The notes: generated from the sequence alone by a model not told the origin. Positions 1-39,800 are shown, numbered from the stretch's first letter. The stretch: DNA of 64,000 nt from an uncultured Spirochaetota bacterium (GCA_963783575.1 CAWAOD010000015.1:1-64000); one strand, 5' to 3'. Translations and numbers: made by a program.

Positions 1-529
1 TCTTTTGTGGTAGTAGTTTTTTACGGTGTTCAAATCCCTGATTCTTTCTCCGTCTAAAGAGCCTTGAACCGTACCGGTTGAATCTACCGGCGGTTTGTCG
101 TTCACTCCATCATTGGCCGGACTGGTAATAGCAAGAGTTTTAACCTCAAGCGGCAGGTCGGCGGGAACCGGTGAAAAGGAAACAAATCCTTTCCAATCCT
201 TGAAGGAACTTCAGAGACTCCTTGAAATCAAAGCCTTTCATCTTCTCCACCAGGTCGAAAGTGTCCCCGGCTTCCCCGCATCCGAAGCAGTTGTATAAAC
301 CTTTTTCTTTATCGACCGAAAGGCTGGCCGTTTTGCTGTCATTATGCCACGGACAAAGCCCCTTGAAGTTCTTCCCGACCTTCGACAGCTTCACGTTGAA
401 ATAAGCAAAGAGTTCGATAATATCAACGCTTTTCTTGATGTCGTCTTTTTCAAATTCTTCAAGGAATCCGGCGACCTGCAGGGTTTTCTTCCCGCCTAAT
501 TTGTCTTTCTTTGGAGGTATTCCAGTCAT
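1..529 (-). pseudogene. DNA primase (CHC2 zinc finger) of element copy 3; frameshifted near 200 and running off the window edge
   Basis: CPWH...CFGC zinc finger, nearly identical to the N-terminus of 8886..11699. An extra base near 200 (aagttccttcaaggattgg versus aagttcctgaaagattgg) shifts the frame. The other frame continues ...ERIRDLNTVKNYYHKR, matching the intact copy. Confidence 0.8.
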
Positions 530-530
530 T

Positions 531-1298
531 TTACACCCCCAGCCTTAAAAGCAGTTCTTCGCCGATGGCCTTTACTTCTTCCGCGGCTTTTGACGGCCTT
601 CCGTCCACTCTTGGCCGTGATATTACGCCGGTTTTTAGTGAAATCGCTTCTTCAATACGTATCGACTTGGAAAGCGAAGTATTAAAGACCTTTTCACCAA
701 AAGCCAGCCTGATTTCATCGCTTATCTGCCTGCATATCAACGGCTTTGGGTCATATCCGTTGATAAGGATTCCAAGAATTTGTAATGAAGGGTTGAAGGT
801 CTTTCTCACTTTAGTAACAGACGCCATTAAATCATTTGCCCCCTGCATACTGTAAAGGCTTGGGTTCATTGGAACAATAAGCCAGTCAGAGGCAATTAAA
901 GCATTAACAGTTAGAATTCCGAGAGACGGCGGCGAATCAATCAAGATAAAGTCATAGTTTTGAAATTGTTCCCCGGAAAGCAAGTCTTTCATGCGGGTGA
1001 GTGACTTTATTTCCCCGACTAATGATTTTTCAAGCCCGGCAAGTTTTACATCGCCGGATAGGAGATATAAGCAGGGTCTTACTTCTTCGGCCTCATAATC
1101 CGCCGAACCACTTAAAGCCTCGTAAAGCCCGAAACCGGGAATATCAACAAGGCTCTTTGAAAGATTGCCCTGCGGATCGGCATCAATAAGCAGAGTACGA
1201 TAGCCGGAACAGGCCAGATAATAAGCAATATTAAGGCTTGTGGTTGTTTTTCCGCAGCCGCCTTTTTGGTTGGCAAAGTCTATAATTATTCGTTTCAT
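531..1298 (-). CDS. parA: ParA/Soj family ATPase (copy 3)
   Basis: NQKGGCGKTT deviant Walker A, IDADPQGN, IDSPPSL. Start moved to MKRIII at 1298 by homology with the other two copies. Confidence 0.9.
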   Translation of the reverse strand: MKRIIIDFANQKGGCGKTTTSLNIAYYLACSGYRTLLIDADPQGNLSKSLVDIPGFGLYEALSGSADYEAEEVRPCLYLLSGDVKLAGLEKSLVGEIKSLTRMKDLLSGEQFQNYDFILIDSPPSLGILTVNALIASDWLIVPMNPSLYSMQGANDLMASVTKVRKTFNPSLQILGILINGYDPKPLICRQISDEIRLAFGEKVFNTSLSKSIRIEEAISLKTGVISRPRVDGRPSKAAEEVKAIGEELLLRLGV

Positions 1299-1308
1299 GA
1301 CCAGCCCC

Positions 1309-1940: not shown

Positions 1941-2300
1941 ATGCTTATAAAAGATAAGATAAAGGAATTAAGGCAAAAGAAAAGCTGGTCACAAGGTCAG
2001 CTTGCGTTGAAATTAAAGGCCAATCAAAAACAAATCTCTGCCTATGAAAGGGGAGTTCATATACCATCGTCCGAGATGCTTATTAAAATGGCCCAAATAT
2101 TTGATGTAAGCGTGGATTATCTTGTTTTTGAGACGGAAGCAAATGTTAATCCCGGAATTAAAGATCGTGAATTGTTTAAACAATTTGAACAAATTGACAA
2201 TTTAAATGATAATGATAGACAGCTGGTAAAAGAAATTTTGAATCTTGTGATATTAAAAAATAAATTTCAGAACTTACTAGAGCCGTCAAATAGCCGATAA
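1941..2300 (+). CDS. XRE-family HTH repressor (single HTH)
   Basis: IKELRQKKSWSQGQLA...ISAYERGVHIPS...IFDVSVDYLV; divergent from the element operon. Confidence 0.9.
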   Translation: MLIKDKIKELRQKKSWSQGQLALKLKANQKQISAYERGVHIPSSEMLIKMAQIFDVSVDYLVFETEANVNPGIKDRELFKQFEQIDNLNDNDRQLVKEILNLVILKNKFQNLLEPSNSR

Positions 2301-2543: not shown

Positions 2544-2706
2544 TCTTAACATAATTTGCCTTATCGTCAAGCAATCGAAAAAATCGCGCTTTTTATGCCG
2601 ATTTTCCTGATTCTTTTAACTGAAAACTTTTGAATTGCCCGTCTTTTCTTCATCCCGACGGCTCAATAGTGCAAACGCCTGCCGCAAAGGCTAAATTATG
2701 TTAAGT
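2544..2706. repeat. dif-like hairpin A (inverted XerC/D-like sites, 6-bp and 7-bp spacers)
   Basis: Minus: CTTGACGATAA-GGCAAA-TTATGTTAAGA. Plus: CCTGCCGCAAA-GGCTAAA-TTATGTTAAGT. TTATGTTAA matches the XerD arm of dif. Confidence 0.75.
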
Positions 2707-2945
2707 TGTCATAATAATTTAAACCCTAAAACTTATCATCACCGGTTCCTTTATCATCAGGGTCTATGCCAAGCGTTCGGCGGCGGCGCACCGGAAAAAC
2801 CGGGCTGGCGCATCTATCAAGTCTTCCGCCATGTCCCTCCCCGCCCATACGTCCGCCTCTAGTCTGCCTCGCCATCAAGCCCCTTCCGGACTCCCGACTT
2901 TCGGTTACTAAAAAGCTGGAATTTAAAGATCTTTTTTTTTCAGAT

Positions 2946-3218
2946 CCCGCCAGCCACGAAAATTATACCGCTCAATCAAGAATTATCAAGGGTTAAGTCG
3001 CTGTCTCGCTCCCGGATTCTGCGGAATCCGCCCTTGACAATTCTTGCTTTCGCTGGTTTTGCGGTTAGGCTGGGCGGGTATTAATAATGGTAACGCCCCA
3101 ACTAATAACATCAAAGCGCGAACCGGAAATTTGTCAAGGGCATACACGGACGTATGCGACGATAGGAGTTTACCCTTGACGAATTTCCGGTGAGCCTTAC
3201 AATATCCGTAGTTGGGGC
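2946..3218. repeat. Back-to-back pair of ~125-bp nested palindromes (TCAAGGG...CCCTTGA family) with outward promoter-like motifs
   Basis: 2946-3078 and 3095-3218. Homologues at 19864-20139 (inverted), 34028-34159 and 35050-35180. Confidence 0.7.
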
Positions 3219-3414
3219 TTTCCGGTATTTGGAGTCCGGGGCGTCCCGAATAGAAATATCTATACGGCACTGGATACCGGCGGGACAGATGGGTAAAATT
3301 TTACAGGCAGCTTTTACACTCAGACCGGGTGGGCAGGGCGGTACAGATTTTCTCTACGAGACCCTGTTTTTAGCACCGCGCCTTTGCCTCTCACCACCCA
3401 CTACACCCCGGCAA

Positions 3415-3499
3415 AGTTAACATAAGTGCCGCTTATGGGCAGGCGTCTACTGCGTTTAGCCGGGCTGATCGCTTGACCATAAGCGGACTTATGTTAAAG
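3415..3499. repeat. dif-like hairpin B
   Basis: Plus: CTTGACCATAA-GCGGAC-TTATGTTAAAG. Minus: CCTGCCCATAA-GCGGCAC-TTATGTTAACT. Confidence 0.75.
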
Positions 3500-3727: not shown

Positions 3728-4819
3728 CTACTTTCCTTCTTCCTTCAAGTAATAATCAAACACCCACCCCTTGATTGTCTCCTCTCCGTCCTTCTTGGCA
3801 ATCCCCGTATCGATAAAAGCCCAATACCCCTTCTTGTCCCCCACCGTCAAAGCTACATCTGACCGCTTCAAAAGCGTCACCTTCGCTCCCTTGGAGAGCT
3901 TCAACAGCACCGCCCCGTTCGTCGCCGCTTCCGACCGCACGTTTACGTTGTCGCCTGTGAGGATGTAGGTTTGAGTAAGCTGGTTTTGTAATAGTTCAAA
4001 CTTACCATTGTTAAATTTATATTTCTCCACAACAAACGGTTTGCCTTCTTCCACCCTTAGATATGCTGTTAGTATACCATTATTCGTATCAAAAGTAACA
4101 TGACTGTCTAAAATATTTGTAAGAACTTTCTTAAGAAAATTATTTCTTTCAACAAAATCCAATATTCCATTCCCATTAGTCAATTTTTCCGAGTTAAATT
4201 TTGTGTTATATGAATAAAAAGAATCTCCATCATAAAGAATAATAAAGTTACCATAAAAATATATATTCTCATAAATATTTGCATCTTCAATAGCTTTATA
4301 ATATTTGCCATTATACTTTAAAAATAAATATGAACCCGGATCCCAAACTATATTCTGAGGGACTGTATATGAAATAAAAATGTATTCCCCATTTAAATAA
4401 TTAGCCAGAGTCAAGTTAATAGTTCTTTTAAACTTTCCTTCCTCATTCTTAATAACATCAGCCTCTTTCAATAACTGGTAAAATAGCTCTCCATTTTCTT
4501 TATCGGATTTAAACCGGTAAACAGTATCATCAATTTTAATCCAGACGTTTGTCAACCGGTTTTCCGATAAGATATTGAAAGGATCAGGCATAAATGCCCA
4601 CTTTGTATTTCCTACATTTGTCTCATACTCCAAATAAACCAGCCTGTTGCTGTATTTACCCATAATATCTTCGTTAAGCAATTTTAATATCTTTCCATCT
4701 GGCCTGTCATAATAATTCATAGTTTGCGGTTCCTTCAAAATAGCATATTCGCCGCCAAATGAAACGTTTATCGCAATAGTGGTTAATAATAAATAAATTA
4801 ATGTAAATTGTCTACCCAT
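3728..4819 (-). CDS. Secreted protein with C-terminal SH3b domain; probable immunity protein of the upstream orphan toxin
   Basis: Signal peptide MGRQFTLIYLLLTTIAINVSFG (likely start 4819). C-terminal GDNVNVRSEA...KGAKVTLL...W...GWVF is SH3b-like. Directly downstream of the orphan tip. Confidence 0.65.
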   Translation of the reverse strand: MGRQFTLIYLLLTTIAINVSFGGEYAILKEPQTMNYYDRPDGKILKLLNEDIMGKYSNRLVYLEYETNVGNTKWAFMPDPFNILSENRLTNVWIKIDDTVYRFKSDKENGELFYQLLKEADVIKNEEGKFKRTINLTLANYLNGEYIFISYTVPQNIVWDPGSYLFLKYNGKYYKAIEDANIYENIYFYGNFIILYDGDSFYSYNTKFNSEKLTNGNGILDFVERNNFLKKVLTNILDSHVTFDTNNGILTAYLRVEEGKPFVVEKYKFNNGKFELLQNQLTQTYILTGDNVNVRSEAATNGAVLLKLSKGAKVTLLKRSDVALTVGDKKGYWAFIDTGIAKKDGEETIKGWVFDYYLKEEGK

Positions 4820-4835
4820 AAATGCCCCCGATTCC

Positions 4836-5838
4836 TTACTTAGAGGTAATAACAAACCATATAACTTTATCCGCAGTGTAATTAGCAAATCTGGGATTTG
4901 AATACCCCATTGTCTGTGCGTTAATCTGCTGCGAATATGCCGAGCCGGGGTCGTTTAATGTATAACTCACTGGCGTGTTATTATAATCGCTTATTTCTCC
5001 TGTTAGATTTACATAGTGATATTTCCCGGCGCCATTTGAAACTTCAACTATTGAATTTTGACCGCTCTGGATGTTTCTAGAAAGGTTTCCTGAAATATCC
5101 GTTGATGGGTGCTCGTATGCAACATTATAATTTAGATTTTGTGAATCTAAATACCTTTCAACTAATCTCTTTGGATTATTGAGAACTAGCTCCTGTATAT
5201 AAAGTATTCCCTTGTGCATCTTTTTGATTAGCAAGATTATTTAATTCTTCAACCGTTACGGTCTTATTTATTCCTAAACGTTTGAACTCATCGTTCAGAT
5301 CGTTGGCTATCGCTGTAATGAAACAACCGCTTGTTCCAATTCGGTTACTGTTAATACTATCATTTATCGAGTCAATTTGCTCACTTAGATAAAATACTTT
5401 TAATCGCTTATCACTATCGGATATACTTGAATCAAGCATTGTTGAAACTATTTCGGTTTGCAATTCAGATTTTTTACTTTGCAATTGACTTTCATAATTC
5501 CTGTTCATCACTGGATCTTCATATGTATGATTTTCATCATTGTATTGTTTTAAATTACTACCTGAGTTTGTTAAAGATGTGTCTTGAAATCCTATGTAAT
5601 CTTGAGGGTTTGGTGTAAATGTCGAAACTCCTGTATCTGTACCAATACCCATATATTCTTGGGAGGTTCCATTCTCCTGTGTTGAAATGGGGGGTCTCCT
5701 CCCTGTAGACCCTTTTTCTTTTTCCCTCAATAAATTAGACGCTTTTTTCTTTTTACATTTTATGATTTCCGCTTTCGCTTTAACCATCAAAAGCATTATA
5801 GCGGCCCGCCTCCTGGTTTCAATCACGGATTGCAGCAT
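4836..5838 (-). pseudogene. Element leader fused to orphan Rhs toxin tip 2 (C39/papain-like peptidase), split by a frameshift near 5190
   Basis: ORF 5176..5838 has SGCFITAIAN (Cys); the overlapping ORF 4836..5234 has HYVNLTG and NDPG (His/Asp), together a C39-like catalytic set. Leader resembles that of 24457..25470. Confidence 0.65.
5684..5712. other. Putative recombination junction (leader/toxin tip 2)
   Basis: GAAATGGGGG-GTCT-CCTCCCTGTAGACCC aligns without gaps to 25280-25308. Core GAAATGGGGG also occurs in rhs at 37687-37696. Confidence 0.6.
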
Positions 5839-5841
5839 TTT

Positions 5842-6093
5842 CTATACGGCCAATTCATATTCTTCTACCGGTACGCTCATCAAAGATGCCGGTTTCTTCT
5901 TATCCGAATAGATTTCAAAGAAATCCTTTTCAATTTTTTCTAAAACTTCACCTTTGAAATATCGTTCTCCGCAAAACTCGCAAACCTCGCAGGGTACATT
6001 TTCAACAACCATCATCTTACCATCGTGTTTGTAAATATATTCGACTTTTGATTCTTTTAGATTCTTGTTCCCGCAAAAACTACAAATTTCCAT
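5842..6093 (-). CDS. YgiT/MqsA-type zinc finger antitoxin
   Basis: CSFCG...VENVPCEVCEFCGE. Confidence 0.85.
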   Translation of the reverse strand: MEICSFCGNKNLKESKVEYIYKHDGKMMVVENVPCEVCEFCGERYFKGEVLEKIEKDFFEIYSDKKKPASLMSVPVEEYELAV

Positions 6094-6096
6094 ATC

Positions 6097-6408
6097 TCAT
6101 TTACCTCTTTCATAAATATTCTTGAATTTCGGCGGGGATGGGATATATACCGTTATCAGAACCAGCCAGCCGTCTTTTTCTCCGCATAATCCATGAATGG
6201 GAATTCCGCTATCCGAAAAACCCGCGACAAGAACACATGACCCCCTTCCGGTATCCTCATATTCTTCAATAACCCTGCCATTAATAATAGCGCTTTTTAT
6301 GTCCGCTACAGTAAGATTATCATCGGTTCTTTCAGTATCCGCATGATTGGAAAAATAATATTCTTTCCTTATCAATTTTTCCTTTATCCAATCAATCGTT
6401 ATTTCCAT
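6097..6408 (-). CDS. DUF4258-family putative toxin
   Basis: FSNHA...I.NG.VIEEY...SCVLVAG...PIH...VLITVYIP; paired with a YgiT-type zinc finger. Confidence 0.8.
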   Translation of the reverse strand: MEITIDWIKEKLIRKEYYFSNHADTERTDDNLTVADIKSAIINGRVIEEYEDTGRGSCVLVAGFSDSGIPIHGLCGEKDGWLVLITVYIPSPPKFKNIYERGK

Positions 6409-6431: not shown

Positions 6432-7451
6432 TTAGCCTTCTTTTGACTTTTGAACAAATTTTCCGCTATCTTTATTCCATTCTAAAATATAGCTTTCTCT
6501 CGATATTACATCAAAATACAATTCGTTTTCCAGCGGGTGGTATTTCCGGTAAATCTCCTTCAAGTAAGCAGTCGAAAGGTTCAAATAAATCTGCGTTGAA
6601 TCAAGCGAGCTATGCCCAAGTAAAAGCTGAACTTCTCTAATATCCGCACCGGCATTTAAAAGGTGAGTAGCGAAGGAATGTCGGATGATATGAGGGTAAA
6701 CCGCCTTTGTAATTCCCTGTTCCTCCTTAATCTTACGGATGATGCCTGAAAGGCCGCCGGTTGTTAAAGCCTTGCCGAAGCTGCCTAGAAAAAGCTTCCT
6801 TGACTGGTCTTTCTTTCGGGGAAGCCGGGAATATTCCAGCCTGATCTTTTTAATGTATTGCACAAGGTACTTTATCGGCGTTTCACCAAGCGGTAAAATT
6901 CTGTCTTTCTTGCCTTTGCCGTTTCTTATGAAAAGCATTTTCTCATCAAGGAAAATATCCGTTACTTCCAGATTACAGAGTTCCCTTGCCCGGATTCCGG
7001 TTCCGTAAAGAAGTTCTAAAATTGTCCGGTTCCGGAAGTCGAGCGGGTTGTCCACCGGAACGGAATCGATAAAGTCCCGCATTTCTTTTTCTGAAAGAAC
7101 TTTGTCCCGGATGTTATGCCGCTTTCCCTTCATTTCAACATTACCGAAAGGGTTCTGAAGGATTTTATCTTCTCTTTCAAGTATTTGAAAAATCCGCTTC
7201 ATGGCCATAGCATCTTTTTGAACGCTTTCTTTTTTGATGCCTCTTTTAGAGCTTTTCTCAAGATATTCCATAAACCCGTAAATATCGCTTTCCCTCACAT
7301 CCCGGAAATCAGGAATCTTTCTGCTTTCAAGATAATCATTGAAGCGTTTCAGTATGCGATTAAGGCTTTGTATAGAGCTTTGGGAATAGTTCCGGCTGGT
7401 GAGGACTTCGGAAACGATCGTCTTGACGACTTCAAAAGTAAGTTCGTTCAT
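6432..7451 (-). CDS. Tyrosine recombinase (XerD-like), copy 2
   Basis: ELLYGTGIRAREL, GKGKKDR, HIIRHSFATHLL, LLGHSSLDSTQIY (R-H-R-H-Y catalytic residues). Confidence 0.95.
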   Translation of the reverse strand: MNELTFEVVKTIVSEVLTSRNYSQSSIQSLNRILKRFNDYLESRKIPDFRDVRESDIYGFMEYLEKSSKRGIKKESVQKDAMAMKRIFQILEREDKILQNPFGNVEMKGKRHNIRDKVLSEKEMRDFIDSVPVDNPLDFRNRTILELLYGTGIRARELCNLEVTDIFLDEKMLFIRNGKGKKDRILPLGETPIKYLVQYIKKIRLEYSRLPRKKDQSRKLFLGSFGKALTTGGLSGIIRKIKEEQGITKAVYPHIIRHSFATHLLNAGADIREVQLLLGHSSLDSTQIYLNLSTAYLKEIYRKYHPLENELYFDVISRESYILEWNKDSGKFVQKSKEG

Positions 7452-8707
7452 GCTTTTGCCTCTCGTGGATGAAACTTGAGAAGCGTCAATCTGAGATGCT
7501 CCGGCGAAAGCTTTGTATAGCGTTCCGTTGTCGCCAGCTTTTCATGGCCTAAGAGGTCGGAAACCTGTTTGATTCCGGCTCCGTTCTCAAGCAAGTGAGA
7601 CCCGTAGGAATGCCGGAAGCAATGACAGGTTATCTTTTTCTTTATCCCGGCTTTAGAGCATGCTTTTGATAAATACCTGTTTACTGTTTCATTGCATGGG
7701 ATTTTCCCTTCGTAAGCCGATGGAAAGACACGAGTGCCTTCTACAAAGCCCCGGCAAACCAGAGGGCGAACGTTATCAATAAAAAGCTTCAGGTAGGCGG
7801 TTCCGACATCGCCAAGCTGGACAATCCTTTCCTTGTTAGTCTTTGTCTCAAATATGACGGCTTCCTGATTTTCAAAATTAATATCCTCGATCTTTAAGGC
7901 CAATAACTCGCCGATCCGCACGCCGGAGGAATAAAGGACAACCTGAATCGTTTTAAGCATAAATTCAAAAGGGGTTTCAGCCTTGACGTTAAACAGCTTG
8001 ACAACCTCTTTCCTTGATAGAATATTTCTTGAAACCTTGTCTTCAGCCCTTACGCTTCCCATCTGCCCGGAGAAACCGGCGCATAAGCCTTTCTTTGAAA
8101 GAAATATAAGGAATGGTTTGACAAGGTTTGTTTTCTGCCTCAATGTAGACGGGGCGTAAAGGCGATTGCCTTTCTTGTCTGTCTGATCGGCAAGATATTT
8201 AACGTAATCTTTTACATCATCCCGGCGGAGATCGGTAAAGCTGTTTACATTCCGTTCAAAGACAAGATACTTCAAAAAGTTCCGGGCATGCTCGGCAAGC
8301 CTGCCGGTTGTGGAAGCGGGATATCCTTCATTTTTCCGCTTTACAACGTATTCAAGGCAAATGGAACGCAATTCCTCCGGCAGCCCGGCGTATAGGTCAA
8401 TCTGAGGCTTGCCGCCGCCGGTTTGTTCAATTGTAAGCCCGCAATATTTCAAGAAACAGCGGGAAACCTGTATATACGTGCGGATTGTCTCTTTTGATTT
8501 GCCATTACCGGCGAGATAAACGGAAAAGGCTTGGATATCGGCTTTTGTGAGGGCTTGCAGCTGTTCGGGATCAGTAATATTAAGACTTTCTTTGAGAAAA
8601 GACGTAAAGGCAATGAGAGCGTTCTTTTTGACAATCAAACCCTGCCTCTTGAAGTTCCGGACTTCGTAGTATGAAAGGAAGTTTTGAATTAACTTTTCTA
8701 TCGTCAT
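7448..8707 (-). CDS. Tyrosine recombinase with extended N-terminus (XerC-like), copy 2
   Basis: LYSSGVRIGEL, HCFRHSYGSHLL, LLGHEKLATTERY. Start MTIEKL at 8707 from RBS and homology to 27175..28455. Confidence 0.93.
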   Translation of the reverse strand: MTIEKLIQNFLSYYEVRNFKRQGLIVKKNALIAFTSFLKESLNITDPEQLQALTKADIQAFSVYLAGNGKSKETIRTYIQVSRCFLKYCGLTIEQTGGGKPQIDLYAGLPEELRSICLEYVVKRKNEGYPASTTGRLAEHARNFLKYLVFERNVNSFTDLRRDDVKDYVKYLADQTDKKGNRLYAPSTLRQKTNLVKPFLIFLSKKGLCAGFSGQMGSVRAEDKVSRNILSRKEVVKLFNVKAETPFEFMLKTIQVVLYSSGVRIGELLALKIEDINFENQEAVIFETKTNKERIVQLGDVGTAYLKLFIDNVRPLVCRGFVEGTRVFPSAYEGKIPCNETVNRYLSKACSKAGIKKKITCHCFRHSYGSHLLENGAGIKQVSDLLGHEKLATTERYTKLSPEHLRLTLLKFHPREAKA

Positions 8708-8751
8708 TTTGTTATCCTCTTTTTTAGGGTGTATGCCTCCCCCGGAAACGC

Positions 8752-8870
8752 TGACCCACTCCTTTTGAGGCTCACCTCTTTTTCTAATCCATTGCAATTA
8801 ATAAAAATATAAAAGAGGCTGGCCTCAAAAGTGGGTCTGACCCGGTTTGACCCGCTCTGACCCACTTTTG
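8752..8870. repeat. TGACCC iteron-like repeats, candidate replication origin (copy 2)
   Basis: AAAAGTGGGTC-TGACCCGGTT-TGACCCGCTC-TGACCCACTTTT with 10-bp periodicity, directly downstream of the primase gene. Confidence 0.55.
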
Positions 8871-8885
8871 CATTTTTACCTGTAT

Positions 8886-11699: not shown

Positions 11700-11700
11700 G

Positions 11701-12462
11701 TTACACCTCCAGCCTTAAAAGCATTTCCTCACCGAGGGCTTTGATTTCTTCGGCGGCTTTTGACGGTCTCCCATCGACACGAGGCCGGAATATAACGCCG
11801 GATTTTGAGGCAATAGCTTCCTCAATACGGATAGATCTGGAAATTGAGGTATTAAAGACTTTTTCCCCAAAAGCTTCCCGGATCTCACCATAGATCTGTC
11901 TGGTGATTACAGGATTCGATTCATAGGCATTAATAATAACACCGAGGAGCTGCAAGCCTGGATTGAAGTTTTTTCTTACCTTCGCAACCGTGGCCATTAA
12001 ATCATTAGTTCCCTGCATACTGTAAAGGCTTGGATTCATGGGAATAACAACAAAGTTTGAAGCCGTTAATGCGTTACCGGTAAGAATGCTTAAAGACGGA
12101 GGGCTGTCGATTAAAATAAAGTCATAGGTCTGGAATAATTCGCCTTCTAAAAGGTCTTTCATTTTAGTAAAAGCATCCAGTTCACCGATTAAAGATTTCT
12201 CAAGGCTGGCCAGCTTCACGCCGCCGGATAAAAGAGACAAATTAAACTTCACTTCTTCCGGCTCATAGTCGCTGCCAGTTAAGGCTTCAAATAAGCCGAA
12301 GCCGGGAATATCGACAAGGCTTTTAGACAGATTTGCTTGAGGATCGGCGTCGATCATTAAAACACGGTAATTCTTTTCAGAAAGGTAAATTCCTAACTCT
12401 CTGGTGCAAGTCGTTTTGCCAACTCCGCCCTTCTGGTTACTGAAAACAATGATTTTCTTCAT
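11701..12462 (-). CDS. parA: ParA/Soj family ATPase (copy 2)
   Basis: NQKGGVGKTT, IDADPQAN, IDSPPSL. Confidence 0.92.
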   Translation of the reverse strand: MKKIIVFSNQKGGVGKTTCTRELGIYLSEKNYRVLMIDADPQANLSKSLVDIPGFGLFEALTGSDYEPEEVKFNLSLLSGGVKLASLEKSLIGELDAFTKMKDLLEGELFQTYDFILIDSPPSLSILTGNALTASNFVVIPMNPSLYSMQGTNDLMATVAKVRKNFNPGLQLLGVIINAYESNPVITRQIYGEIREAFGEKVFNTSISRSIRIEEAIASKSGVIFRPRVDGRPSKAAEEIKALGEEMLLRLEV

Positions 12463-12473
12463 TGCCGCCCCCC

Positions 12474-12752
12474 CTAAATTGTGCCGGGGGCTTTCATTTC
12501 CCGGAGTTCCCTTTTAGCTTGACCTACAAGCGTTGTAAGCTGGTTGTAAGTCCGCCTGAAAACCATGACATTAACTGCGGCCTCTCCGTTCAGATAAACA
12601 ACTTGCGCCTTCTGGATTCCTTCGCCTGATAAAATGAATTTTCCCATTTCCTTGCGGTTCTGGCTGACGATTTCGACCTTTTCCAGCTTGAAGCCTTCAA
12701 TCAGATAAAAGGCGGCTTCATAAAGGTCGGTGGTACTGATAAGACCTGACAT
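12474..12752 (-). CDS. Small conserved protein (DUF5659-like), copy 2
   Basis: Homology to the other two copies; GGAGG RBS. Confidence 0.7.
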   Translation of the reverse strand: MSGLISTTDLYEAAFYLIEGFKLEKVEIVSQNRKEMGKFILSGEGIQKAQVVYLNGEAAVNVMVFRRTYNQLTTLVGQAKRELREMKAPGTI

Positions 12753-12801
12753 GACGGGTCCCTCCTAAAAATAAAATTTTATGGAGGGTTACGCCTCGAT
12801 A

Positions 12802-12977: not shown

Positions 12978-12980
12978 GCA

Positions 12981-28455: not shown

Positions 28456-28484
28456 TTCAGGGGTATACCTCTCTCCAAAAACTA

Positions 28485-28627
28485 TGACCCAGTTTAGTAA
28501 ATCCCTTGTTAATAAAGGGTTCTCTACTCGAAATCTGGGTCAGACCCAGTTTTACCCAGTTGACCCAGTTTACTTTAATCTATTGAAATATATGAAAATA
28601 TATTACTATTACCATGTTGACCCAGTT
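28485..28627. repeat. GACCCAGTT iteron-like repeats, candidate origin (copy 1)
   Basis: About five copies of (G/T)ACCCAGTT, an inverted CTGGGTC and an AT-rich tract. Confidence 0.55.
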
Positions 28628-31406: not shown

Positions 31407-31415
31407 TGCAACCCC

Positions 31416-32180
31416 CTAAACCAGATTCAAACGGTTTAAGAGTTCTTCGCCTATGGCCTTTACTTCTTCGGCGGCTTTTGACGGCCTTCCGTCTATTCTT
31501 GGCCTCGATATAACGCCGGTTTTTAAGGATATCGCTTCTTCTATGCGAATCGACTTTGATAAAGCGGTATTAAATACCTTTTCCCCAAAAGCAGTGCGGA
31601 TTTCTTCCACGATCTGCCTGGTAATCACCGGGTTTGAATCAAAGGCGTTTATGATAACCCCGAGGAGCTGCAAGCCCGGATTAAAATTCTTTCGAACTTT
31701 CGCCACCGTAGCCATGAGGTCATTAGTTCCCTGCATTGAATATAGACTTGGGTTCATCGGAATAATAAGCCAGTCGGAAACCGTTAAAGCGTTGCCGGTA
31801 AGAATACTTAAAGACGGCGGGCTGTCGATTAAAATGAAGTCGTAGGCTTGAAAGCCTTCACCAGAAAGCAGGTCTTTCAATTTTGTGAAAGCATCCAGTT
31901 CACCAATAAGTGATTTTTCAAGGCTGGCCAGCTTGACATCGCCTGAGAGAAGCCATAAGTTTTCTTTTACCTGTTCCGGCTCGAAGTCGGTACCGGTCAA
32001 AGCTTCATATAGGCCAAAGCCAGGAATATCGACAAGGGATTTTGAAAGGTTGCCCTGCGGATCGGCGTCAATAACCAGCGTTTTGTGCCCCATTGCCGCC
32101 AGCCAGATCGAAAGGTTGAAGGTTAAAGTTGTTTTACCAACGCCGCCCTTTTGGTTGGATAATACGATTGTTTTTGACAT
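31416..32180 (-). CDS. parA: ParA/Soj family ATPase (copy 1)
   Basis: NQKGGVGKTT, IDADPQGN, IDSPPSL. Confidence 0.92.
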   Translation of the reverse strand: MSKTIVLSNQKGGVGKTTLTFNLSIWLAAMGHKTLVIDADPQGNLSKSLVDIPGFGLYEALTGTDFEPEQVKENLWLLSGDVKLASLEKSLIGELDAFTKLKDLLSGEGFQAYDFILIDSPPSLSILTGNALTVSDWLIIPMNPSLYSMQGTNDLMATVAKVRKNFNPGLQLLGVIINAFDSNPVITRQIVEEIRTAFGEKVFNTALSKSIRIEEAISLKTGVISRPRIDGRPSKAAEEVKAIGEELLNRLNLV

Positions 32181-32190
32181 AGCCAGCCCC

Positions 32191-32466
32191 CTAATTGGAT
32201 TCGGGGGCTTTGAGACGCATTTCTTTCTTCACATTTCCCAACAATGCGTTTAAATGAACGTAAGCCCGGCGGAAATCCAGAAGATTAACCGTAGCCTGGC
32301 CGTTGAAGTATTCAATCTGCGCCTGAGTTAGACCTTCGCCTGTGAAGGTAAATTTTCCGGCTGGCTTTTTGGCTTCTCTGGCAAGTTCGACTTTTTCAAC
32401 CGAATAGCCGAGGCAGATATAATACCCGGCCTCGTAATAATCCGAAGTGATTAAGGTTTGCAACAT
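32191..32466 (-). CDS. Small conserved protein (DUF5659-like), copy 1
   Basis: Homology to the other copies; GGAGG RBS. Confidence 0.7.
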   Translation of the reverse strand: MLQTLITSDYYEAGYYICLGYSVEKVELAREAKKPAGKFTFTGEGLTQAQIEYFNGQATVNLLDFRRAYVHLNALLGNVKKEMRLKAPESN

Positions 32467-32508
32467 GTTCTCCTCCTTAATATTTCGGAGGAAAACGCCT
32501 CGAATGGA

Positions 32509-32737
32509 TTGATTAAAGCTTCAGCTTATGCTATAATAACTTAGGTAAGTTTCGAGGAGTTTTCCTCACTTATGGCTCTGCTTTCAACTTGTCTAGGGCG
32601 GAAAGCAGGGCTTTTCTTTATCTCTAAAGATTTTAAAAACAGGCTTTTTAAGCTTGTTTTTTTAAGCAAAATACATTCATATATACACTTATTATGTTTG
32701 TTACATTAATTATATATTATGGGTAAATTTTTGTCAA
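32509..32737. promoter_or_regulatory. Convergent promoters and putative antisense RNA (copy 1)
   Basis: Plus TTGATT-17-TATAAT at 32509-32537; minus TTGACA-17-TATAAT at 32709-32737; hairpin GGCTCTGCTTTC...GAAAGCAGGGCT. Confidence 0.6.
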
Positions 32738-33447
32738 GCACAATTTTAAAAAGAAGAAAAAGAAATACTTACTTGATTGGTAAAAACTTTAAAGAACTTA
32801 GAAAAAATGAAGGATTTACACTTGAAGTCTTGTCCAATAAGACCAAAATTCATATTGAACCATTAAAGCAATATGAAAGTAATCTATACTCACCAAACCT
32901 AAATAATCTTAATAAGCTCTCTAATTTCTATGGTGTTTCTATCGATTTTCTTATCCTATGGGACAAAACTAATTACATCAGAAGTACCAGGTTAATTGAA
33001 CTGTCGAAAATTATTGACAAACTCGACCAGGTGAAACGGTTTCAAGTTGAATCCACAGCCATGACCCTTATAGGAGATAAGATTTCCAACGTTTTCGTTA
33101 AAGAAGATTCTTTTGATTTGACCAATGATATACATTTAAACCTGAAACAGCTTCGGGAGAGCAGTAAAGTTTCACAAAATAATATTGCTGATTATCTAAA
33201 CATTTCTCAAGGCTTGGTAGCAAACTATGAACGAATAACTATCCCTCCACTGGATAATTTAATCAAGCTTGCAGAGTTCTTCAGTGTGTCCATTCATTCT
33301 TTGGTTACAGGAGAAAATCTGACTTTTCAGTTAGCTAACAATGGATTGAAAGATTCCGTCTTGAAAGCAGACCAGTTGCTTAGTATCAAAGATAAAAGTT
33401 TTCTCATTCTTTTGATGGATAAAATTATCATGGAAACAAAAACCTGA
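32719..33447 (+). CDS. XRE-family repressor with two HTH domains (true start probably near 32773)
   Basis: Two HTH repeats; related to 12981..13652. Confidence 0.85.
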   Translation: MGKFLSSTILKRRKRNTYLIGKNFKELRKNEGFTLEVLSNKTKIHIEPLKQYESNLYSPNLNNLNKLSNFYGVSIDFLILWDKTNYIRSTRLIELSKIIDKLDQVKRFQVESTAMTLIGDKISNVFVKEDSFDLTNDIHLNLKQLRESSKVSQNNIADYLNISQGLVANYERITIPPLDNLIKLAEFFSVSIHSLVTGENLTFQLANNGLKDSVLKADQLLSIKDKSFLILLMDKIIMETKT

Positions 33448-33629
33448 TAACTTTATCGTCCCCAAATAAACAAAAGCATTGAAATTAAAGAATAGCTTCT
33501 TGTCCCGACATTCGGCTCTCGTCGGGCACCCTTGAAATCTCCGGCGCGTTCACCGTCCTCACACTGCCTGCGCTTTCAACGGTGCCACTCCTCAAGCCGC
33601 CGGTTTTTCCGGTGCGCCACTCGCCTCTC

Positions 33630-33790
33630 TCTTAACATAATTTGCCTTATCGTCAAGCAAGCGACACAATCGCACTGAATATACCGATTTTGATTTTTTA
33701 AACAATAAGCTTCTGAATTTCCTGTCTTTCCTTCATCCCGAAGGCTCAATGGCTGCAAACGCCTGCCGCTAAGGCTAAATTATGTTAAGT
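33630..33790. repeat. dif-like hairpin E
   Basis: Arms almost identical to hairpin A (GGCAAA and GGCTAAA spacers). Confidence 0.75.
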
Positions 33791-34027
33791 TGTCTCAGTT
33801 CTACTTTTTTAAAGCTTTATCCTTTCCGGTTCTTTCATCATTAGGTTCTGAGCCAAACGTTCGGCGGCGCCACACCGGAAAAACCGGGCTGGCGCTTCGG
33901 CGACAGACTGCGCCATGTCCCACCCGCCCATACGTCCGCCTTTAGCCTGTGCCATCATCAAGCCCCTTTCGGACTCCCATCTTCGGTTATCAAAAAACTG
34001 GAATTTAAAGATCTTTCTTTTTCAGAT

Positions 34028-34159
34028 CCACCCAGCCATGAATATTATACCATTCAATCAAGAATTATCAAGGGTAAAGTCGCTGGCCCGCTCCCGGATT
34101 CTGCGGAATCCGCCCTTGACAATTCTTGCTTTCGCTGGTTTTGCGGTTAGGCTGGGCGG
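34028..34159. repeat. TCAAGGG/CCCTTGA palindrome
   Basis: Homologous to 2946-3078. Confidence 0.7.
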
Positions 34160-34229
34160 ATATTAATTAATAAAACTAAAGTAATTTTTATATTATTCGA
34201 CATATATTATAAAAAAAGAGGTTAACTCT

Positions 34230-35048
34230 ATGAATCACAAGAGAATTCAAATTCTGAATATCTACTCCAGACAAAAAAAATCTTCAAATAATATTTTATC
34301 TGATGTAATAACTATAACATTAATTACTTTGATATTCTCTATCGTATTTTATTCATATGAAATAGGTTATGCCGACTATTTTGGTTACAATTATTCATTA
34401 ATAAAAGTAACACTTTTTGGAAGAATACTTTCAATTTTTTCTTTGTCATTGTATTCTAATTTTACCGTTATTATTGTTCTCATTTTTACCATTATTATAT
34501 TATTATATGCACGTATGCTATCACCAAAAAAGGTTATTCCGTATAAGACAAAAGTTAAAATATTAATTCCAATTTTACTATTGTCAATTAAATACTTAAT
34601 TATACCCCCCGTTATGTTTCTGCTCATTAAATATCTCGTATCTGATAAACATCTTGTCTCTTTTAATTACATAATTGTTCCAATATATGTGATTCTTCTC
34701 TTAATTAATATCCAAAAATATTTTAAAGTATTAGACAGATTTAAAAATATAAGTTCTTTTTTTATAGATACATTAAATGATTATGGAAGTATATTCACCA
34801 ATTATATTTATATCTCAATATTTTTGATTTGTATGTCCTATTCTGCAGGTTATAATTACGCTAAAAACAAGAAAATTTTTGAATCTTACGATAATGGAAC
34901 GAACCTAATAATTAATCATTACAATGATTATTCTATTGTTAATTCCAGAATAAATGTATTAAATACTAATAAGGTATATTTTTTCCTTAAAAATGAAGAT
35001 TTAACGAATAAGTATATAACAAATGTTTCTATTACGAATACCAATTAA
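34230..35048 (+). CDS. Very AT-rich multi-pass membrane protein (cargo)
   Basis: GAGG RBS; several hydrophobic helices; lies between two palindromes. Confidence 0.65.
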   Translation: MNHKRIQILNIYSRQKKSSNNILSDVITITLITLIFSIVFYSYEIGYADYFGYNYSLIKVTLFGRILSIFSLSLYSNFTVIIVLIFTIIILLYARMLSPKKVIPYKTKVKILIPILLLSIKYLIIPPVMFLLIKYLVSDKHLVSFNYIIVPIYVILLLINIQKYFKVLDRFKNISSFFIDTLNDYGSIFTNYIYISIFLICMSYSAGYNYAKNKKIFESYDNGTNLIINHYNDYSIVNSRINVLNTNKVYFFLKNEDLTNKYITNVSITNTN

Positions 35049-35049
35049 C

Positions 35050-35180
35050 AAACCCCCAGTAATCAACAACACCAGCGACAGGCAGAAAAATCAAGGATGA
35101 GCGCATCAGCGCGAACGACGACAGGAGCTTGTCCTTGATTTTTCTGAATGGAGCGGTATAATTCTTTTTACTGGGGGTTT
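35050..35180. repeat. TCAAGGA/TCCTTGA nested palindrome
   Basis: AAACCCCCAGTAA...GAAAAATCAAGGA...TCCTTGATTTTTC...GAGCGGTATAAT...TTACTGGGGGTTT. Confidence 0.65.
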
Positions 35181-35359
35181 TTAAATGATCGGTGCTTTAT
35201 CTTGATTTGATTTCCCGGGAGCCGAACGGCACTTGATAGAATAAAAAAAACCTCGCCGGCGCACGGGCGGGTCGGGGCCAGCGACAAAACTTGATGACGG
35301 CGCCAGCCCTGTTTTTAGCGCCGCGCCTTTGCCTCTACCCCGCTTTTACACCCCGGCAA

Positions 35360-35518
35360 AGTTAACATAAGTTCCGCTTATGGGCTGTAATTCCTTCCAC
35401 TGAGCCGTTTTAATAACCGTAAAAGCTGATTTAAGTTTAATAAGAATTGAAAATATATGGCTTCAGAATCGACGCGATTTACTCCCCTGCACAGACCATA
35501 AGCGGACTTATGTTAAAG
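35360..35518. repeat. dif-like hairpin F
   Basis: Plus ACAGACCATAA-GCGGAC-TTATGTTAAAG; minus ACAGCCCATAA-GCGGAAC-TTATGTTAACT. Confidence 0.75.
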
Positions 35519-35974
35519 CAAGCGGCGGGGATCAGGCTTTGCCTGTCCACGCAAAAACAGGCGGTTTGACGAACCCGCTGTAGCGAACGTAGGCGGTGCT
35601 GACAGCCGGAAGCGCGCCGCAGTGAACGGAAGCGGGTGAGGAAAGCCGAGCTGGCTTTCTACAGCCTCCATGCCCCCGACTCCGCGACAATACTGCATAT
35701 AGCGGCTCTTATTCCGCTTTGCATATATACCCAAACCCGCTCAAAAAACACATGAGATGTTTTGGATATATACTCAAAGCATTCATTTCCTTTTCAGGTT
35801 AGAAAATATTAAATATATACTTAATGTTTTAAACTCTTTACATATATAGCTAAAACTGTTATCTGCCGAGGGGAAAATAACTTCTCTCGGATATATCTAA
35901 AGAAGACACACCTTCTACAGCTCCACCCAACAAAAAAAGCCTCAAGCTTCTTCTGCCTACAGGGCTTGTTAAAA

Positions 35975-36844
35975 TCATTTCTCTATGCTATATCTGTATA
36001 CATCCTTCCTTGTCATTCCAAATACCACATAGGAACTGTCCGACTTCCAGTTAAAAAAATACGATGCCAGAGAAGCATTGTTTGTCAATGTCCTTAAAAC
36101 CTTCTGCTTTTGAAGGTCTATGAAATATAAGAGATTTTGTTTATCTTGGCAGATCACTGTCCTTTCATCAGGCGAAATCGTGAAATAGTCCATAAACACG
36201 GTCACATCTACAGGCAATTTCACTTTCTCAAACTTTTTCTGACTGATGGAATAGCGGTAAATTTTCGATTCTTCCGGACCGTCCAGAAAATTCTGATTAT
36301 TCAACAAGTAAATTAAGTCCGGATTCTTTACTGCTATAGGTAGAAAATACCATTCTTTTGAACTATATAGCTGTTCATTGCTTCCCGTGGTAATATCAAA
36401 TTGATATAGCTTATGGACTTCTTTATCCCCTTTACCTTCCATTGCATCATAATATATTCTTTTTGAATCATAAGACCAGCAATAATAATTATGTTTTGTG
36501 GCTATAACGGAAATTATTTGATAATTGCTACTATTAATAATTTCAAGGCGTTTATTGCTATATTTTGTAAGATATAAACCATCTGGACTCATTTCATTAT
36601 ACCTATTGCTATCATTTTCAAATACAACTACATTTGTTATATAATAACCAGCATTATGATAAATCACATCATCTTTTGTTAATAATTGTTTAATAAGTAA
36701 GCTATCATTTTTACTGTCAATAATTAGCCCCCATAATTCACCTTCATCAAATTTGTAGATTCTTTCAAGTTTGTCTAATCCAAATAAATATGAAAAATTA
36801 AAAATGCTCATAACCAAAATGATGATATAAATTTTTCTTTTCAT
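35975..36844 (-). CDS. Cognate immunity protein of the Rhs toxin (secreted, beta-propeller-like)
   Basis: Immediately downstream of rhs; signal peptide; paralogue at 23574..24446. Confidence 0.75.
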   Translation of the reverse strand: MKRKIYIIILVMSIFNFSYLFGLDKLERIYKFDEGELWGLIIDSKNDSLLIKQLLTKDDVIYHNAGYYITNVVVFENDSNRYNEMSPDGLYLTKYSNKRLEIINSSNYQIISVIATKHNYYCWSYDSKRIYYDAMEGKGDKEVHKLYQFDITTGSNEQLYSSKEWYFLPIAVKNPDLIYLLNNQNFLDGPEESKIYRYSISQKKFEKVKLPVDVTVFMDYFTISPDERTVICQDKQNLLYFIDLQKQKVLRTLTNNASLASYFFNWKSDSSYVVFGMTRKDVYRYSIEK

Positions 36845-36854
36845 AAATTCTCCA

Positions 36855-39800
36855 TTATTTAGAAAAATAATAAGTTAAGTCCGGTATTACCGAAGTTCTA
36901 AATCCGTAGTTTAATGTACCGTTAGGAGTTAAATTATTTAGTATATTGTCTCTCCCTTGCTGAGCTATTGCCGGTGCATAATAATCTTCTTCTTGGTAAG
37001 TAACATAAACACCTTTTCCTGGAGCTAATAAAGCCATATGATTATCATTTGCTACATAGACCAGTTGTCCATGATTTGCCATTTCCTGAACATCATATCC
37101 TTGGTTTGCATCCATAGTTCCATATGAATTATCTGTAAAATACTTTGTCGCATACGGTACACCCCAATGACCTACGGTTTCCAAATCTGAATTTCCGGTA
37201 TATAGCTTGGTTACATAAGATGCGTAACGATCGCAATAAGTCTGGGTTTTTGTTTCAATTGATGGAAAGATTCCAACCCAGACTAATTTTGAAGTAGTGG
37301 TAGGATTGAAAGCCGGGTTATCATACGCAATTCTTTCTGTGAAGTAAAGTCTTTCCGCATCAGTCATGTTATGATCGTCAGCAAAATCTTTAATACTATC
37401 ATAAGTCAAGCTATTAAAAGGTATTTTGCCATTTTTGTATTGATTCTTAAACTCTTGAAATGCATCATTTACTTTATTAAGACTTTCCTGACCATGCCAA
37501 GAAGTATCCCTATAATTTGTTGGATTATCTGTATAATTCGGGTTTATCGGAGCATTATAATCATTTGCGTAATTTACTGAACCTGTAATTGGATTTATAT
37601 TAGCTCCATAATCATTCGCATAATTGCCGGTATGCAAAGATGTTGCTTCTATACTTGGAGTATTCCCCGCTACTGAACTGGGGGGAGAAATGGGGGTTTG
37701 ATTATTAAATTCCGCTGCTACTTCCGGTGTTGCCGGTACAGGATTGGATAAATTATATTCCATAGCATCCATAAGGTTCTTATAATACTCCAACTCTCGT
37801 TCCAGATTAACATCATCTCCTAGTTTGTTCATAATAATTTTAGCCGGGTCAAAATAAAAATTGCTGTTCAATGAACCGACCCGCTGTCCGTCAAGATACC
37901 CAGAGGTTGCACTGGCCTGCAATCCCGCGTAATCGGTAAATCCATACCCTATATTAGCGTTTTCGGTTCTGCCGCGGTAGTTTCCATTTTTGTCGTAATA
38001 CCAGTCCATGCCGGCACCGATATCAAACCCCTGGTTATACCCGGTCTGCTGGTTATAGCCGTAGCTTAATCCAAAACCGTAATTCATTCCCTCGTATTCT
38101 CCATACTCTCCATAATTCCACTGAGCGTGCAATCCGATATTGGCTCCGTTTGACGTTATCCCTGCGTTTGTCCCGATATATTCACTCTGAGATTTCCACA
38201 TTCTGTCATATTCATCGCCGTTCAGGCTGCGTTCCATTGTTCCGCCGAAACTTAAACCTGCTCCTACCTGTAGATATTTAGGGTCTCCTATTCCTATCCC
38301 GGCATTGACATTCCAGTTGAAAGTTTCCGTACGGTATGTATAAGAATGCTTAAAATCAACTCCGCCGCCGAAATAAACAGGAGCTCCGATAGGAGCAAGG
38401 TTCACTTCTAAAGACGAGCCTTCTTCTATATAATATCCTTCATTCTTAGACTTCCCGTATCCATATTTTACAAACCCTAAGTCTATACCGATGAATTCTT
38501 CATAATTAGGATTAACCTGTTCATTTACATAGTTATAACAATCTAGAGAAACTCCTTGATAGCTTGAATCCTTTGCTTCGAACATCGCTCCCACAGCATT
38601 TGACATCACATCATCGCCGAGAGCTGTGGATGATACCTGTCCCATTGATGCGCCCATGAAAAGGCTGCTTATTATATCTTCGCCGTAAGGGTCCCAGAAA
38701 GTCATTGGATTGTTAAGCCCATAAACATACCAGTTCAACCCCGCCGGCCCATATCGTTTATCCGGGTCTTGAATGGGGTCCTGGGTGATAAACCGGCCTG
38801 TGGAAGGGTCAAGGAATCTTGCCCTTGCATAATACAATTTGGATTCACTGTCAAAATAATGCCCGGTGTAACTTATCCCTTCTTTCACTGAGGAGGAGGA
38901 GGAGTTCGTCTCCCCCTCTCCAGACTTGGATAGGGGGCCGGGGTTTGAGGCTATTTGTTCCCCGAAAGCTGTATAGTCGTATGTCTGATAAGAAAATGAA
39001 TGCGTGTTAATAGTGATAGGCGAGTCATAGAGTTCGCCTCTGACTGATCCCTGGGCATCTTTCAGGTAGACAGACGTCTTAACCGAAATCTCCGCCTCAT
39101 AGCTGTTGATCATTATGTTATTCAAATAGAATGTCGAATCATCAAAGAGAATATTCTGCCCGTCATATACAAACCTTATTGCGGGTTGATCAATGCTTCC
39201 TGCCGCGTCCGATGTTTCGTTCTTGGATATCCGCAGGTTATTGACATCGTAAACATTCTTTGTTATTGTAGTATTCCCGTTTTCTAAAAGGTTATACTCC
39301 GTCATCAAATCCCTGGAGTCATACTTGAACCTCTCCGTCTTCCCGGAGCCGTCCTTCTTAACCAGCCTCCCCGCCCGGTCGTATGTATACGAAACACTCC
39401 CCTTAGTGGATTGTTCGAGCATAAGCCTGTTATCGTTGTCATAGGTATAATGGGTAATGTTATTGCAAGCCGAAGGCGTAGCAATCTGATTGGTCGGTGT
39501 GGAATAAAAGCTGGTTGTCTTAACCAATCTGTTCCCGCATGCATCGTAAGAAAAAACCTCGCTGTTGCTCAGACCGTAATTCGCAGAAACCAGCCTGTAT
39601 GTCTTATCATATTGGAATGTGGAGACACACAATTGTGCGCCTGCCTCACTTACCGTCTCCTTAGTCCTATTGCCTACCTTATCGTAGGTGTAGCCATAGC
39701 TCGATAAAAACTGAACCTGTGCTGAGCTGGTATACTGAGCCTGTCGAAGTGCTGACGAAGCATTTGTGGTATTTGATATTGAAGTAAGCCTATATATATT

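Follow-up and report, generated by a model that had tools for sequence, protein, structure and literature searches.

Homologous displacement of Rhs C-termini via DNA circles has been proposed (PMC2935791), and for contact-dependent inhibition (CDI) systems a 'fossil record' model of orphan tips suggests integration into cdiA and notes integrase genes (PMC4927057). In both models, a new toxin tip arrives on a circle and pushes the old one downstream, so that arrays accumulate. Tandem repeats of a primase and an integrase are known from Photorhabdus as PhRepA, for which no site or tip swap is described in the accessible part of the report (PMC6267812). Here we analyse the first 64,000 nucleotides of contig C15 (C15:1–64000; the window) of an uncultured bacterium (genome G000; 4.9 Mb, 18 contigs, 89.85% complete) whose relatives carry a Spirochaetota label. 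In the window, an rhs gene is followed by a tandem array of units that encode a primase-helicase and tyrosine recombinases, and it is likely, in our judgement, that the unit is an integrative element that enters rhs at a toxin codon and exchanges the tip.

The repeat units as such are already known. PhRepA, like the window units, comprises a tandem primase/integrase pair and a Cro/C1 helix-turn-helix (HTH) gene and adjoins a long gene, there with haemagglutinin repeats; other copies hold remnants of the long gene, and copy number varies between strains (PMC6267812). PhRepA differs in having one recombinase and SymE and in lying behind a haemagglutinin gene, whereas the window has rhs and a PIN or DUF4258 toxin–antitoxin (TA) pair; furthermore, the long gene is counted as part of the repeat, and the accessible text names no attachment core or tip replacement. 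This likeness is one of architecture, not of sequence. The SymE/cHTH/Prim-Hel neighbourhoods also pair a cHTH gene with a DnaG-type primase that is fused to an MCM-like AAA+ helicase, near RHS and haemagglutinin genes, but they were read as TA modules in mobile islands, with no recombinase, core or tip exchange in the part of the account available (PMC1891008), and the window lacks SymE among the Pfam matches of its open reading frames (ORFs). In contrast to the Rhs displacement and CDI fossil-record models, each tip here brings its own recombinase and replication kit, and the breakpoint is fixed at 13–23 bp. The accessible parts of PMC11278526, PMC13183296 and PMC8285248 contain nothing on this element. 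Site-specific tip swapping, of which we found no account for a primase/XerC element in a literature search with incomplete subscription coverage (an earlier description is possible), is thus the part that appears to be new.

ORFs and Pfam matches reveal rhs, an immunity-like gene, and then units A and B and a cut unit C in tandem. The rhs gene (36855–48116, minus strand; 3,753 residues) encodes YD repeats, an Rhs core ending near residue 3068–3145, a glycine-rich linker, the junction core, and the tip. The units have the order divergent XRE, small gene, parA, CHC2/Toprim primase, two tyrosine recombinases, TA pair, tip and immunity-like gene, and span 12,395 bp (unit A) and 19,596 bp (unit B) from core to core. 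Unit C (1–2300), with an XRE gene (1941–2300, plus strand), a small gene, parA, and the start of a primase that shifts frame near codon 112, is cut by the contig end. A first-pass annotation of the window, made from the sequence, had described three diverged modules directly behind a full-length rhs–immunity pair, the third cut in its primase, and the gene order is as it stated. It had also reported no capsid, conjugation or transposase genes, and Pfam (43 ORFs, best five families per protein) likewise yields no capsid, terminase, relaxase, type IV secretion system or transposase family in the 40 ORFs at or below 48116. A genome-wide BLAST search of G000 located three further units at the very start of contig C5. 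Because C15 and C5 each break within a primase copy, because a genome search found no second rhs, and because the C5 array terminates in a core, tip and immunity gene with no further module (followed by an insertion sequence and ordinary genes), the simplest reading is that the C15 and C5 units belong to a single array with at least six cores, across a putative contig join.

Alignment of rhs with five leader/tip junctions defines a 23-bp core, CCCCCA[G/T]TTC-N7-G[A/G]GAAT. One core lies inside rhs, at codons PPSSVAGN, and forms the left junction of unit A (37662–37684, minus strand); the others in the window lie between units A and B (25267–25289, minus strand) and between units B and C (5671–5693, minus strand). 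G000 contains six exact matches in its 4.9 Mb, all at junctions (one in rhs, two at window units, three on C5), and none to a reversed control. In G001, a genome of the same genus (57% complete), there are two exact matches, of which one follows a complete unit and the other a TA remnant; the sequence at a third junction has two mismatches. Across 401 Spirochaetota genomes there are nine matches (six in G000, two in G001, one in G171) versus two for the control, indicating that the core is genus-level, and the scan yielded no empty site. The match in the distant genome is at locus L246 (G171:C1:157851). Because the core pattern had itself been derived from the six sites, a held-out matrix was built from three G000 and three G001 sites, with rhs and the two rhs-like tips of G000 left out; it ranks the six G000 junctions 1–6 of 9.8 million positions, three of these six being training sites. 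The left half of the core (CCCCCATTTC) recurs at 37686–37696, 12 bases upstream of the rhs core.

Sequence identity switches at the core. Over the 30 bases upstream and the 30 bases downstream, respectively, C5u0 and C5u1 (two C5 units) are identical at 30/30 and 7/30 positions, unit B and G001:C17 at 28/30 and 9/30, and unit A and G001:C11 at 27/30 and 8/30; for rhs and unit A the values are 5/30 and 29/30. On a larger scale, the 5,778 bp that lead up to the core are 98.6% identical between C5u0 and C5u1, whose tips are unrelated from the core onward. The 150 bp upstream of the rhs core have an identity of 0.43–0.51 to all eight other sites (shuffled mean, 0.49), and no homology to rhs is detectable upstream of the core at any of the five G000 unit junctions, in agreement with the earlier description of the orphans as devoid of Rhs core. 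Variable-length rhs core on orphan tips, the mark of homologous displacement, is therefore absent from the G000 junctions; it is present in P0125, a 311-residue protein from another data set. P0125 matches rhs residues 3411–3485 at 87% identity, through the core codons, and its tip, which is absent from G000, starts right after the core.

All nine cores of G000 and G001 lie in the rhs frame, reading P-P-[SI]-x-x-x-[GE]-N-like, and are followed in eight cases by 172–277 open codons, versus 2–53 in the other frames. At two of the five G000 unit junctions no in-frame ATG is present upstream. The leader is thus not the conserved ORF fused to the tip that the first-pass annotation had taken it to be, and the tips look stored for fusion.

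Empty and filled alleles are available in homologous systems. One cdiA gene of Enterobacter is common to nine plasmids, seven of which were inspected, three with units and four without. The empty pJBIWA005_1 and the three-unit pJBIWA003_1 align over 528–8751/1–8224 (99.93%) and 8739–16000/32685–39946 (100%); the two aligned segments overlap by 13 bp at the VENN codons, and pJBIWA003_1 has an insert of 24,473 bp. In the element-free plasmid, cdiA is joined to the last tip of the pJBIWA003_1 array. In pJBIWA002_1, cdiA is fused at VENN to a different unit that is colinear over 7,486 bp (tip, immunity, XRE, primase, xerC, TA, leader). The Enterobacter leaders are unrelated to cdiA upstream of VENN, just as the window leaders are unrelated to rhs. 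In E. coli, DNA matches to primase–xerC occur in 122 of 5,426 complete genomes, and EC77 has five units behind rhs. With the last EC77 tip as query, two of the 40 matches listed start exactly at the junction, and both (Ec-U10 and JNE151685) are element-free, their rhs carrying the last tip and immunity gene of EC77; the insert is 30,081 bp, and the break is at GACCCGATAGGGCTG, over the DPIGL codons (15 bp). Being fused to the last tip, the empty alleles match the predicted integration product. There is thus one conserved in-frame breakpoint, tips are exchanged there, and in homologous systems empty alleles carry the last tip.

The primases of the Enterobacter, E. coli and Aureispira units are 30–33% identical to those of the window over about 900–960 residues (E < 1e-114), and their XerC proteins are 28–35% identical to the second recombinase of the window; judged by these protein alignments, the units are homologous to the window units but distant. 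Aureispira has two units and a fixed breakpoint. The hexamer GAGAAT or GGGAAT is present in the VENN core (L226), near the Aureispira breakpoint (L229:9582), and in the window core, within its right half, and may represent a shared recombinase arm or chance. The Enterobacter leader fused to the CdiA tip (L226 15694–16557, and copies) resembles, by eye, the signal peptide of a lipoprotein; displaced tips may accordingly be exported alone.

On the proposed mechanism, each unit would run from core to core, comprising core, tip, immunity gene, cargo, XRE, (small gene, parA), primase-helicase, repeats, recombinase(s), TA, leader and core. The circular form would have a single core with its own tip behind, and the recombinases of the element would join this core to the matching core in the host rhs. 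As a result, rhs would be fused in frame to the element tip, with the cognate immunity gene adjoining, and the previous tip and immunity gene would shift behind the leader of the element. The stack could grow by repeated entry or by duplication, and excision between any two cores would return a stored tip to rhs. We infer that the encoded recombinases perform the exchange, that circles arise and are replicated by means of the primase and repeats, and that the TA pairs stabilise the element. The first-pass annotation had anticipated integration at a short site in rhs with the old tip pushed downstream, which the six in-frame cores, the identity switch, P0125, and the Enterobacter and E. coli empty–filled pairs support; unit ends map to the core rather than to the hairpins of the cargo slots, and tips vary at this codon. 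Its chronological stack is too strict, since tandem duplication and reshuffling occur. Nor is tip A (the tip next after the current one, tip 0) a new class of warhead: it is a homologue of tip 0 (81% identity over the 217 C-terminal residues).

Several observations weigh against entry of an element at the toxin codon. In this genus, neither the core scan of the 401 genomes nor a read overlay yielded an empty allele of rhs or an excised circle; the overlay (24400–44300, three Logan contig sets) had low depth, covered the cores poorly, and showed no joint at either core and one joint unrelated to the cores. The empty-site evidence comes from distant relatives with one recombinase rather than two. 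In Enterobacter, tips vary at VENN in the absence of any element in four of seven plasmids, p152_2 has the tip of the first element and no module, and bare VENN-core orphans without modules occur. The N7 spacer varies between cores, which a strictly homology-dependent recombinase would not tolerate, and the movement of units between cells is not explained by the model. In G001, rhs has a different tip that starts near residue 3469 and is lipase-like by a motif seen by eye; the core is missing from the DNA of this gene although a unit follows, which counts against a simple history. G001 also has one element end away from rhs, and G000 has two remnants away from rhs (C13:136114–136773 and C9:242414–243196; recombinase 3′ end, TA, leader, and a degenerate or half core); both stop at or inside the degenerate core, as fits off-target integration. 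The elements are thus not confined to rhs, occurring also in cdiA and as these remnants. Finally, the protein P0121 follows the rhs C-terminal region at 90% identity but departs from it some 60 residues short of the core, which implies that ordinary homologous displacement also acts; and the first 490 bases of tips 0 and A are 91–98% identical, so that a RecA crossover in the common tip could have brought in unit A.

The last two observations lead to the alternative that survives best, which we nevertheless consider unlikely: that RecA-type C-terminal displacement, by the route of Jackson et al. (PMC2935791), together with tandem duplication, built the array, and that the primase and recombinases are passengers that help circles persist. 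Such a history would suit the roughly 60 residues of pre-core rhs retained by P0121 and P0125 (which, to judge from the equal length of their contigs, may lie on the same one), the near-identical 5′ part of tips 0 and A, the near-identical duplicates C5u0 and C5u1, and the 70–650 bp or more of Rhs core retained by relatives. It predicts variable lengths, however, whereas breakpoints are base-exact within each lineage, and rhs and units with unrelated tips have only 16–17 of the 23 core bp in common, between random flanks. Moreover, cores of 13–15 bp are too short for efficient RecA crossover.

It is distinctly improbable that the elements instead end at the fold-back hairpins that bound their cargo and insert behind an immunity gene, with their own leader and tip at the far end and with the core used for occasional tip capture. 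The hairpins do fold strongly and look like tyrosine-recombinase sites, and a tandem array by itself cannot separate the two registers. In addition, a single leader type precedes the amidase-type tip in three of three cases, as expected if tips belonged to the far end of the element, and this, too, counts against entry at the core. In Enterobacter and E. coli, however, the empty alleles have the last tip, and their breakpoint is at the toxin codon; in Enterobacter, tip and immunity gene co-segregate with the downstream XRE and primase alleles; and two of the five G000 leaders are not translatable into the tip. The TAA-N6-TTATGTTAA site was found in two of 26 other loci scanned, in neither case at a demonstrated unit end. 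Even less credible is a scheme in which the units are immobile and their recombinases shuffle, excise or reorder stored tips at the cores in place, in the manner of an integron or shufflon: the lack of transfer genes by Pfam, the tips kept in frame without start codons, and the bare VENN-core orphans would be expected, but every unit retains a long primase-helicase, parA, and unit-specific iteron-like repeats, near-identical units are present on different plasmids and in E. coli chromosomes, and a two-unit record from Lonsdalea is circular (11.3 kb). An assembly artefact, suggested by the breaks of both contigs in a primase copy and by the frameshifts near the break, is highly improbable given the 16–37% divergence in protein sequence between window units and the same layout in G001 and in complete genomes.

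Relatives of the units were sought by several routes. Primase matches (E ≤ 1e-60) are present in 17 of the 401 Spirochaetota genomes, and 13 of the 15 primase-bearing genomes outside this genus were inspected. Six of the 13 have a fragment of rhs and a small gene behind the recombinases (recognised by BLAST in four and by motif in two); several of the loci are cut short by the end of a contig. G344 has tandem units with different tips, and no rhs was found at the distant loci of G070, G160, G161 and G072. It is the orphans of these relatives outside the genus that retain the 70–650 bp or more of Rhs core, and in G008 three orphans begin within 6 bases of each other. Two further arrangements were observed: in G011:C4 (L047/L048), two inverted units lie behind rhs with tip and immunity gene duplicated, and in G219:C5 (L042/L043), 196-bp repeats of the Rhs core end flank a unit that immediately follows a respiratory-complex-like gene, and the stretch inspected contains no full-length rhs. 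A genome scan with the second recombinase matched G001 only, and metagenome and viral scans were dominated by generic XerC, with a primase homologue in one of 160 loci. Matching plasmids number 33 of 72,556; of eight that were opened, seven link the module to cdiA or rhs, and the Leptospira plasmid has the module and no annotated rhs. The Lonsdalea record may be a free circle or a collapsed repeat. SymE is present in the E. coli rhs and Lonsdalea relatives, and haemagglutinin in the Enterobacter relatives.

Tip 0, the current tip of rhs (36855–37661, minus strand), is predicted to be a Tse1/Tae1-like NlpC/P60 peptidoglycan amidase with a Cys-His pair. In particular, a structure model built from 25 sequences has a predicted local distance difference test (pLDDT) score of 92.6 (43 for a single-sequence prediction) and matches Tse1/Tae1 with a Foldseek E-value of 8e-4 and, for 3vpi_A, a Z-score of 14.9 and a root-mean-square deviation of 2.0 over 129 aligned residues (next Z-score, 8.2). 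Residues Cys92 and His157, numbered in the modelled part, are invariant in four of four close homologues. Homologues of tip 0 form the ends of Rhs-like, PAAR-like and peptidoglycan-binding proteins; within G000 they are tip A and the last C5 tip (67%). The immunity-like gene of tip 0 (35975–36844, minus strand), assigned that role by its position, encodes 289 residues with a hydrophobic N-terminus and a weak beta-propeller match. Tip A (ORF of leader and tip at 25470–24457) and its immunity-like gene (24446–23574) occupy 23574–25266 (minus strand). Tip B, which is unrelated to tip 0 and comprises overlapping ORFs (5838–5176 and 5234–4836), lies with an SH3-containing immunity-like gene (4888–3728) at 3728–5670 (minus strand); its split, like the frame change of the unit C primase, reflects either decay or assembly error. 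Pfam assigns the C5u0 tip to M23 peptidases (E 3e-16), gives one weak CHAP match (E 0.006), and assigns nothing else. The units are thus likely to carry cell-wall toxins with exported immunity proteins.

The backbone of unit A comprises an XRE regulator with two HTH domains by Pfam, in divergent orientation (32719–33447, plus strand); a small gene (32466–32191) and parA (32180–31416), together at 31416–32466 (minus strand); a primase-helicase with a CHC2 zinc finger, Toprim, and a P-loop-like ESASGKS motif (28626–31406, minus strand); iteron-like repeats in direct copies with one inverted copy and a spaced last copy (28485–28629, minus strand); two tyrosine recombinases (28455–27175 and 27178–26159, together at 26159–28455, minus strand); a PIN TA pair (25471–26134, minus strand); and the leader, which is the element end and is unrelated to rhs (25290–25470, minus strand). 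The leader used as a search query matched only the protein of the window itself. The backbone of unit B (6432–13652) comprises XRE (12981–13652, plus strand), a small gene, parA, a primase (11699–8886), iteron-like repeats (8751–8868), and recombinases (8797–7448 and 7451–6432), followed by a DUF4258/MqsA-like TA pair and leader (5694–6408, minus strand). All four window recombinases match PF00589 by Pfam and keep the R, HxxR, H and Y catalytic motifs. The short repeats between primase and first recombinase, compared by eye in 14 regions, are conserved in layout and differ in sequence between units; in five of the 14, a 5-mer of the window's own is present in 4–6 copies, versus 0.57 per kb genome-wide. 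These repeats are the probable origin of the unit.

Each unit also has a cargo slot. In unit A (33630–35518), a gene at 34230–35048 (plus strand) lies between fold-back sites at 33630–33790 and 35360–35518 (z −3.5 and −4.8). The cargo of unit B (13790–23577) comprises membrane-type genes, a fold-back site (22589–22747), a radical SAM gene (21728–20415), two group II introns, and a GHKL gene, with a further fold-back site at 13790–13817. The slot of unit C (2544–3499) has fold-back sites at 2544–2706 and 3415–3499. The first-pass annotation had described hairpin-bounded slots; the boundaries are confirmed, and the hairpins are fold-back sites made of two inverted TTATGTTAA arms that differ in their spacer (6 bases in one arm, 7 in the other). 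We take these sites to resemble dif-derived sites of integrative mobile elements exploiting Xer (IMEX) or attC-type single-strand sites, and they probably serve cargo exchange rather than forming the element ends. An integron reading of the hairpins was rejected, G000 (at its 89.85% completeness) having no IntI (TIGR02249) match above cut-off. One intron (13877–15839) sits in an arm of a fold-back site, and the other (about 17890–20186) has a 98% identical copy in the C5 array.

Some neighbouring features were recorded in passing. The radical SAM gene (20270–21728 region) is followed by a short acidic ORF starting at 20404, which may encode its precursor peptide. The GHKL ATPase and nuclease-like gene (16097–17872) has a weak BbrUII/HgiDII match and is a possible defence gene. 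A probable chromosomal dif site lies at G000:C14:285666–285693. Upstream of rhs, a 3,412-residue immunoglobulin (Ig)-repeat protein and an S8 peptidase (50382–63999) may belong to the delivery system; in G001, too, rhs has a similar Ig-rich gene ahead of it.

The units can also be set against wider classes of mobile element. Phage-inducible chromosomal islands (PICIs), P4-like satellites and integrative islands are small and have a divergent regulator, a primase-helicase, origin repeats, a tyrosine integrase, direct-repeat ends, and tandem accretion. The window units resemble them in having an integrase, a divergent regulator, a primase-helicase, and a putative origin, but differ in that the target is a toxin codon and the element gives the gene a different 3′ end rather than restoring it; no packaging or helper-interference genes are present among the window Pfam matches, with small genes unassigned. 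The recombinase-associated acquired interbacterial defence (rAID) loci of Bacteroidales place a Xer-like recombinase beside immunity-gene arrays. XerC/D is also found beside polyimmunity loci (PMC3482391). The window likewise has Xer-like recombinases adjoining arrays of immunity genes, but those loci are immunity-only with one recombinase, whereas here tips are included as well and every unit brings recombinases and a primase of its own. Integrative and conjugative elements (ICEs) and integrative and mobilizable elements (IMEs) were rejected, there being no relaxase or conjugation genes among the window Pfam matches. Recombinase-in-trio (RIT) elements have three adjacent tyrosine recombinases, and were rejected since the units have two. 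The units have an intact recombinase and a short direct-repeat core at both ends, as tyrosine-recombinase integrative elements do. By these tests the units work like an integrative island and yield C-terminal displacement, and are not ICEs, IMEs, RITs or integrons.

The displacement model of 2009 called for hypothetical circles and for homologous recombination, and the origin of new Rhs and CdiA tips and of orphan arrays has been an open question ever since. The proposed circle can now be given an identity (primase-helicase, origin-like repeats, recombinases, TA), the crossover maps to 13–23 bp, and strains with empty and filled alleles can be named, which makes the question of tip exchange directly testable. 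On balance, and with some reserve, we favour the broader view that the units represent selfish integrative elements spread across phyla (Spirochaetota, Enterobacterales, Bacteroidota, Burkholderiales) that attach at the codon marking the boundary of a polymorphic toxin (VENN in cdiA; DPIG, YExSNHLG or RARxYDP in rhs; PPSSxxGN here). Such elements would re-arm the host toxin and would be protected because integration makes their own immunity gene necessary, and stored tips would be restorable by excision. Their recombinases would also provide a means of targeting motifs within coding sequence and of fusing domains in frame. If this view is true, Rhs and CdiA tips would be exchanged by a dedicated engine driven by recombinases, one that has yet to be described in these terms, and the units would offer a concrete, testable account of how bacteria vary their toxin weapons.

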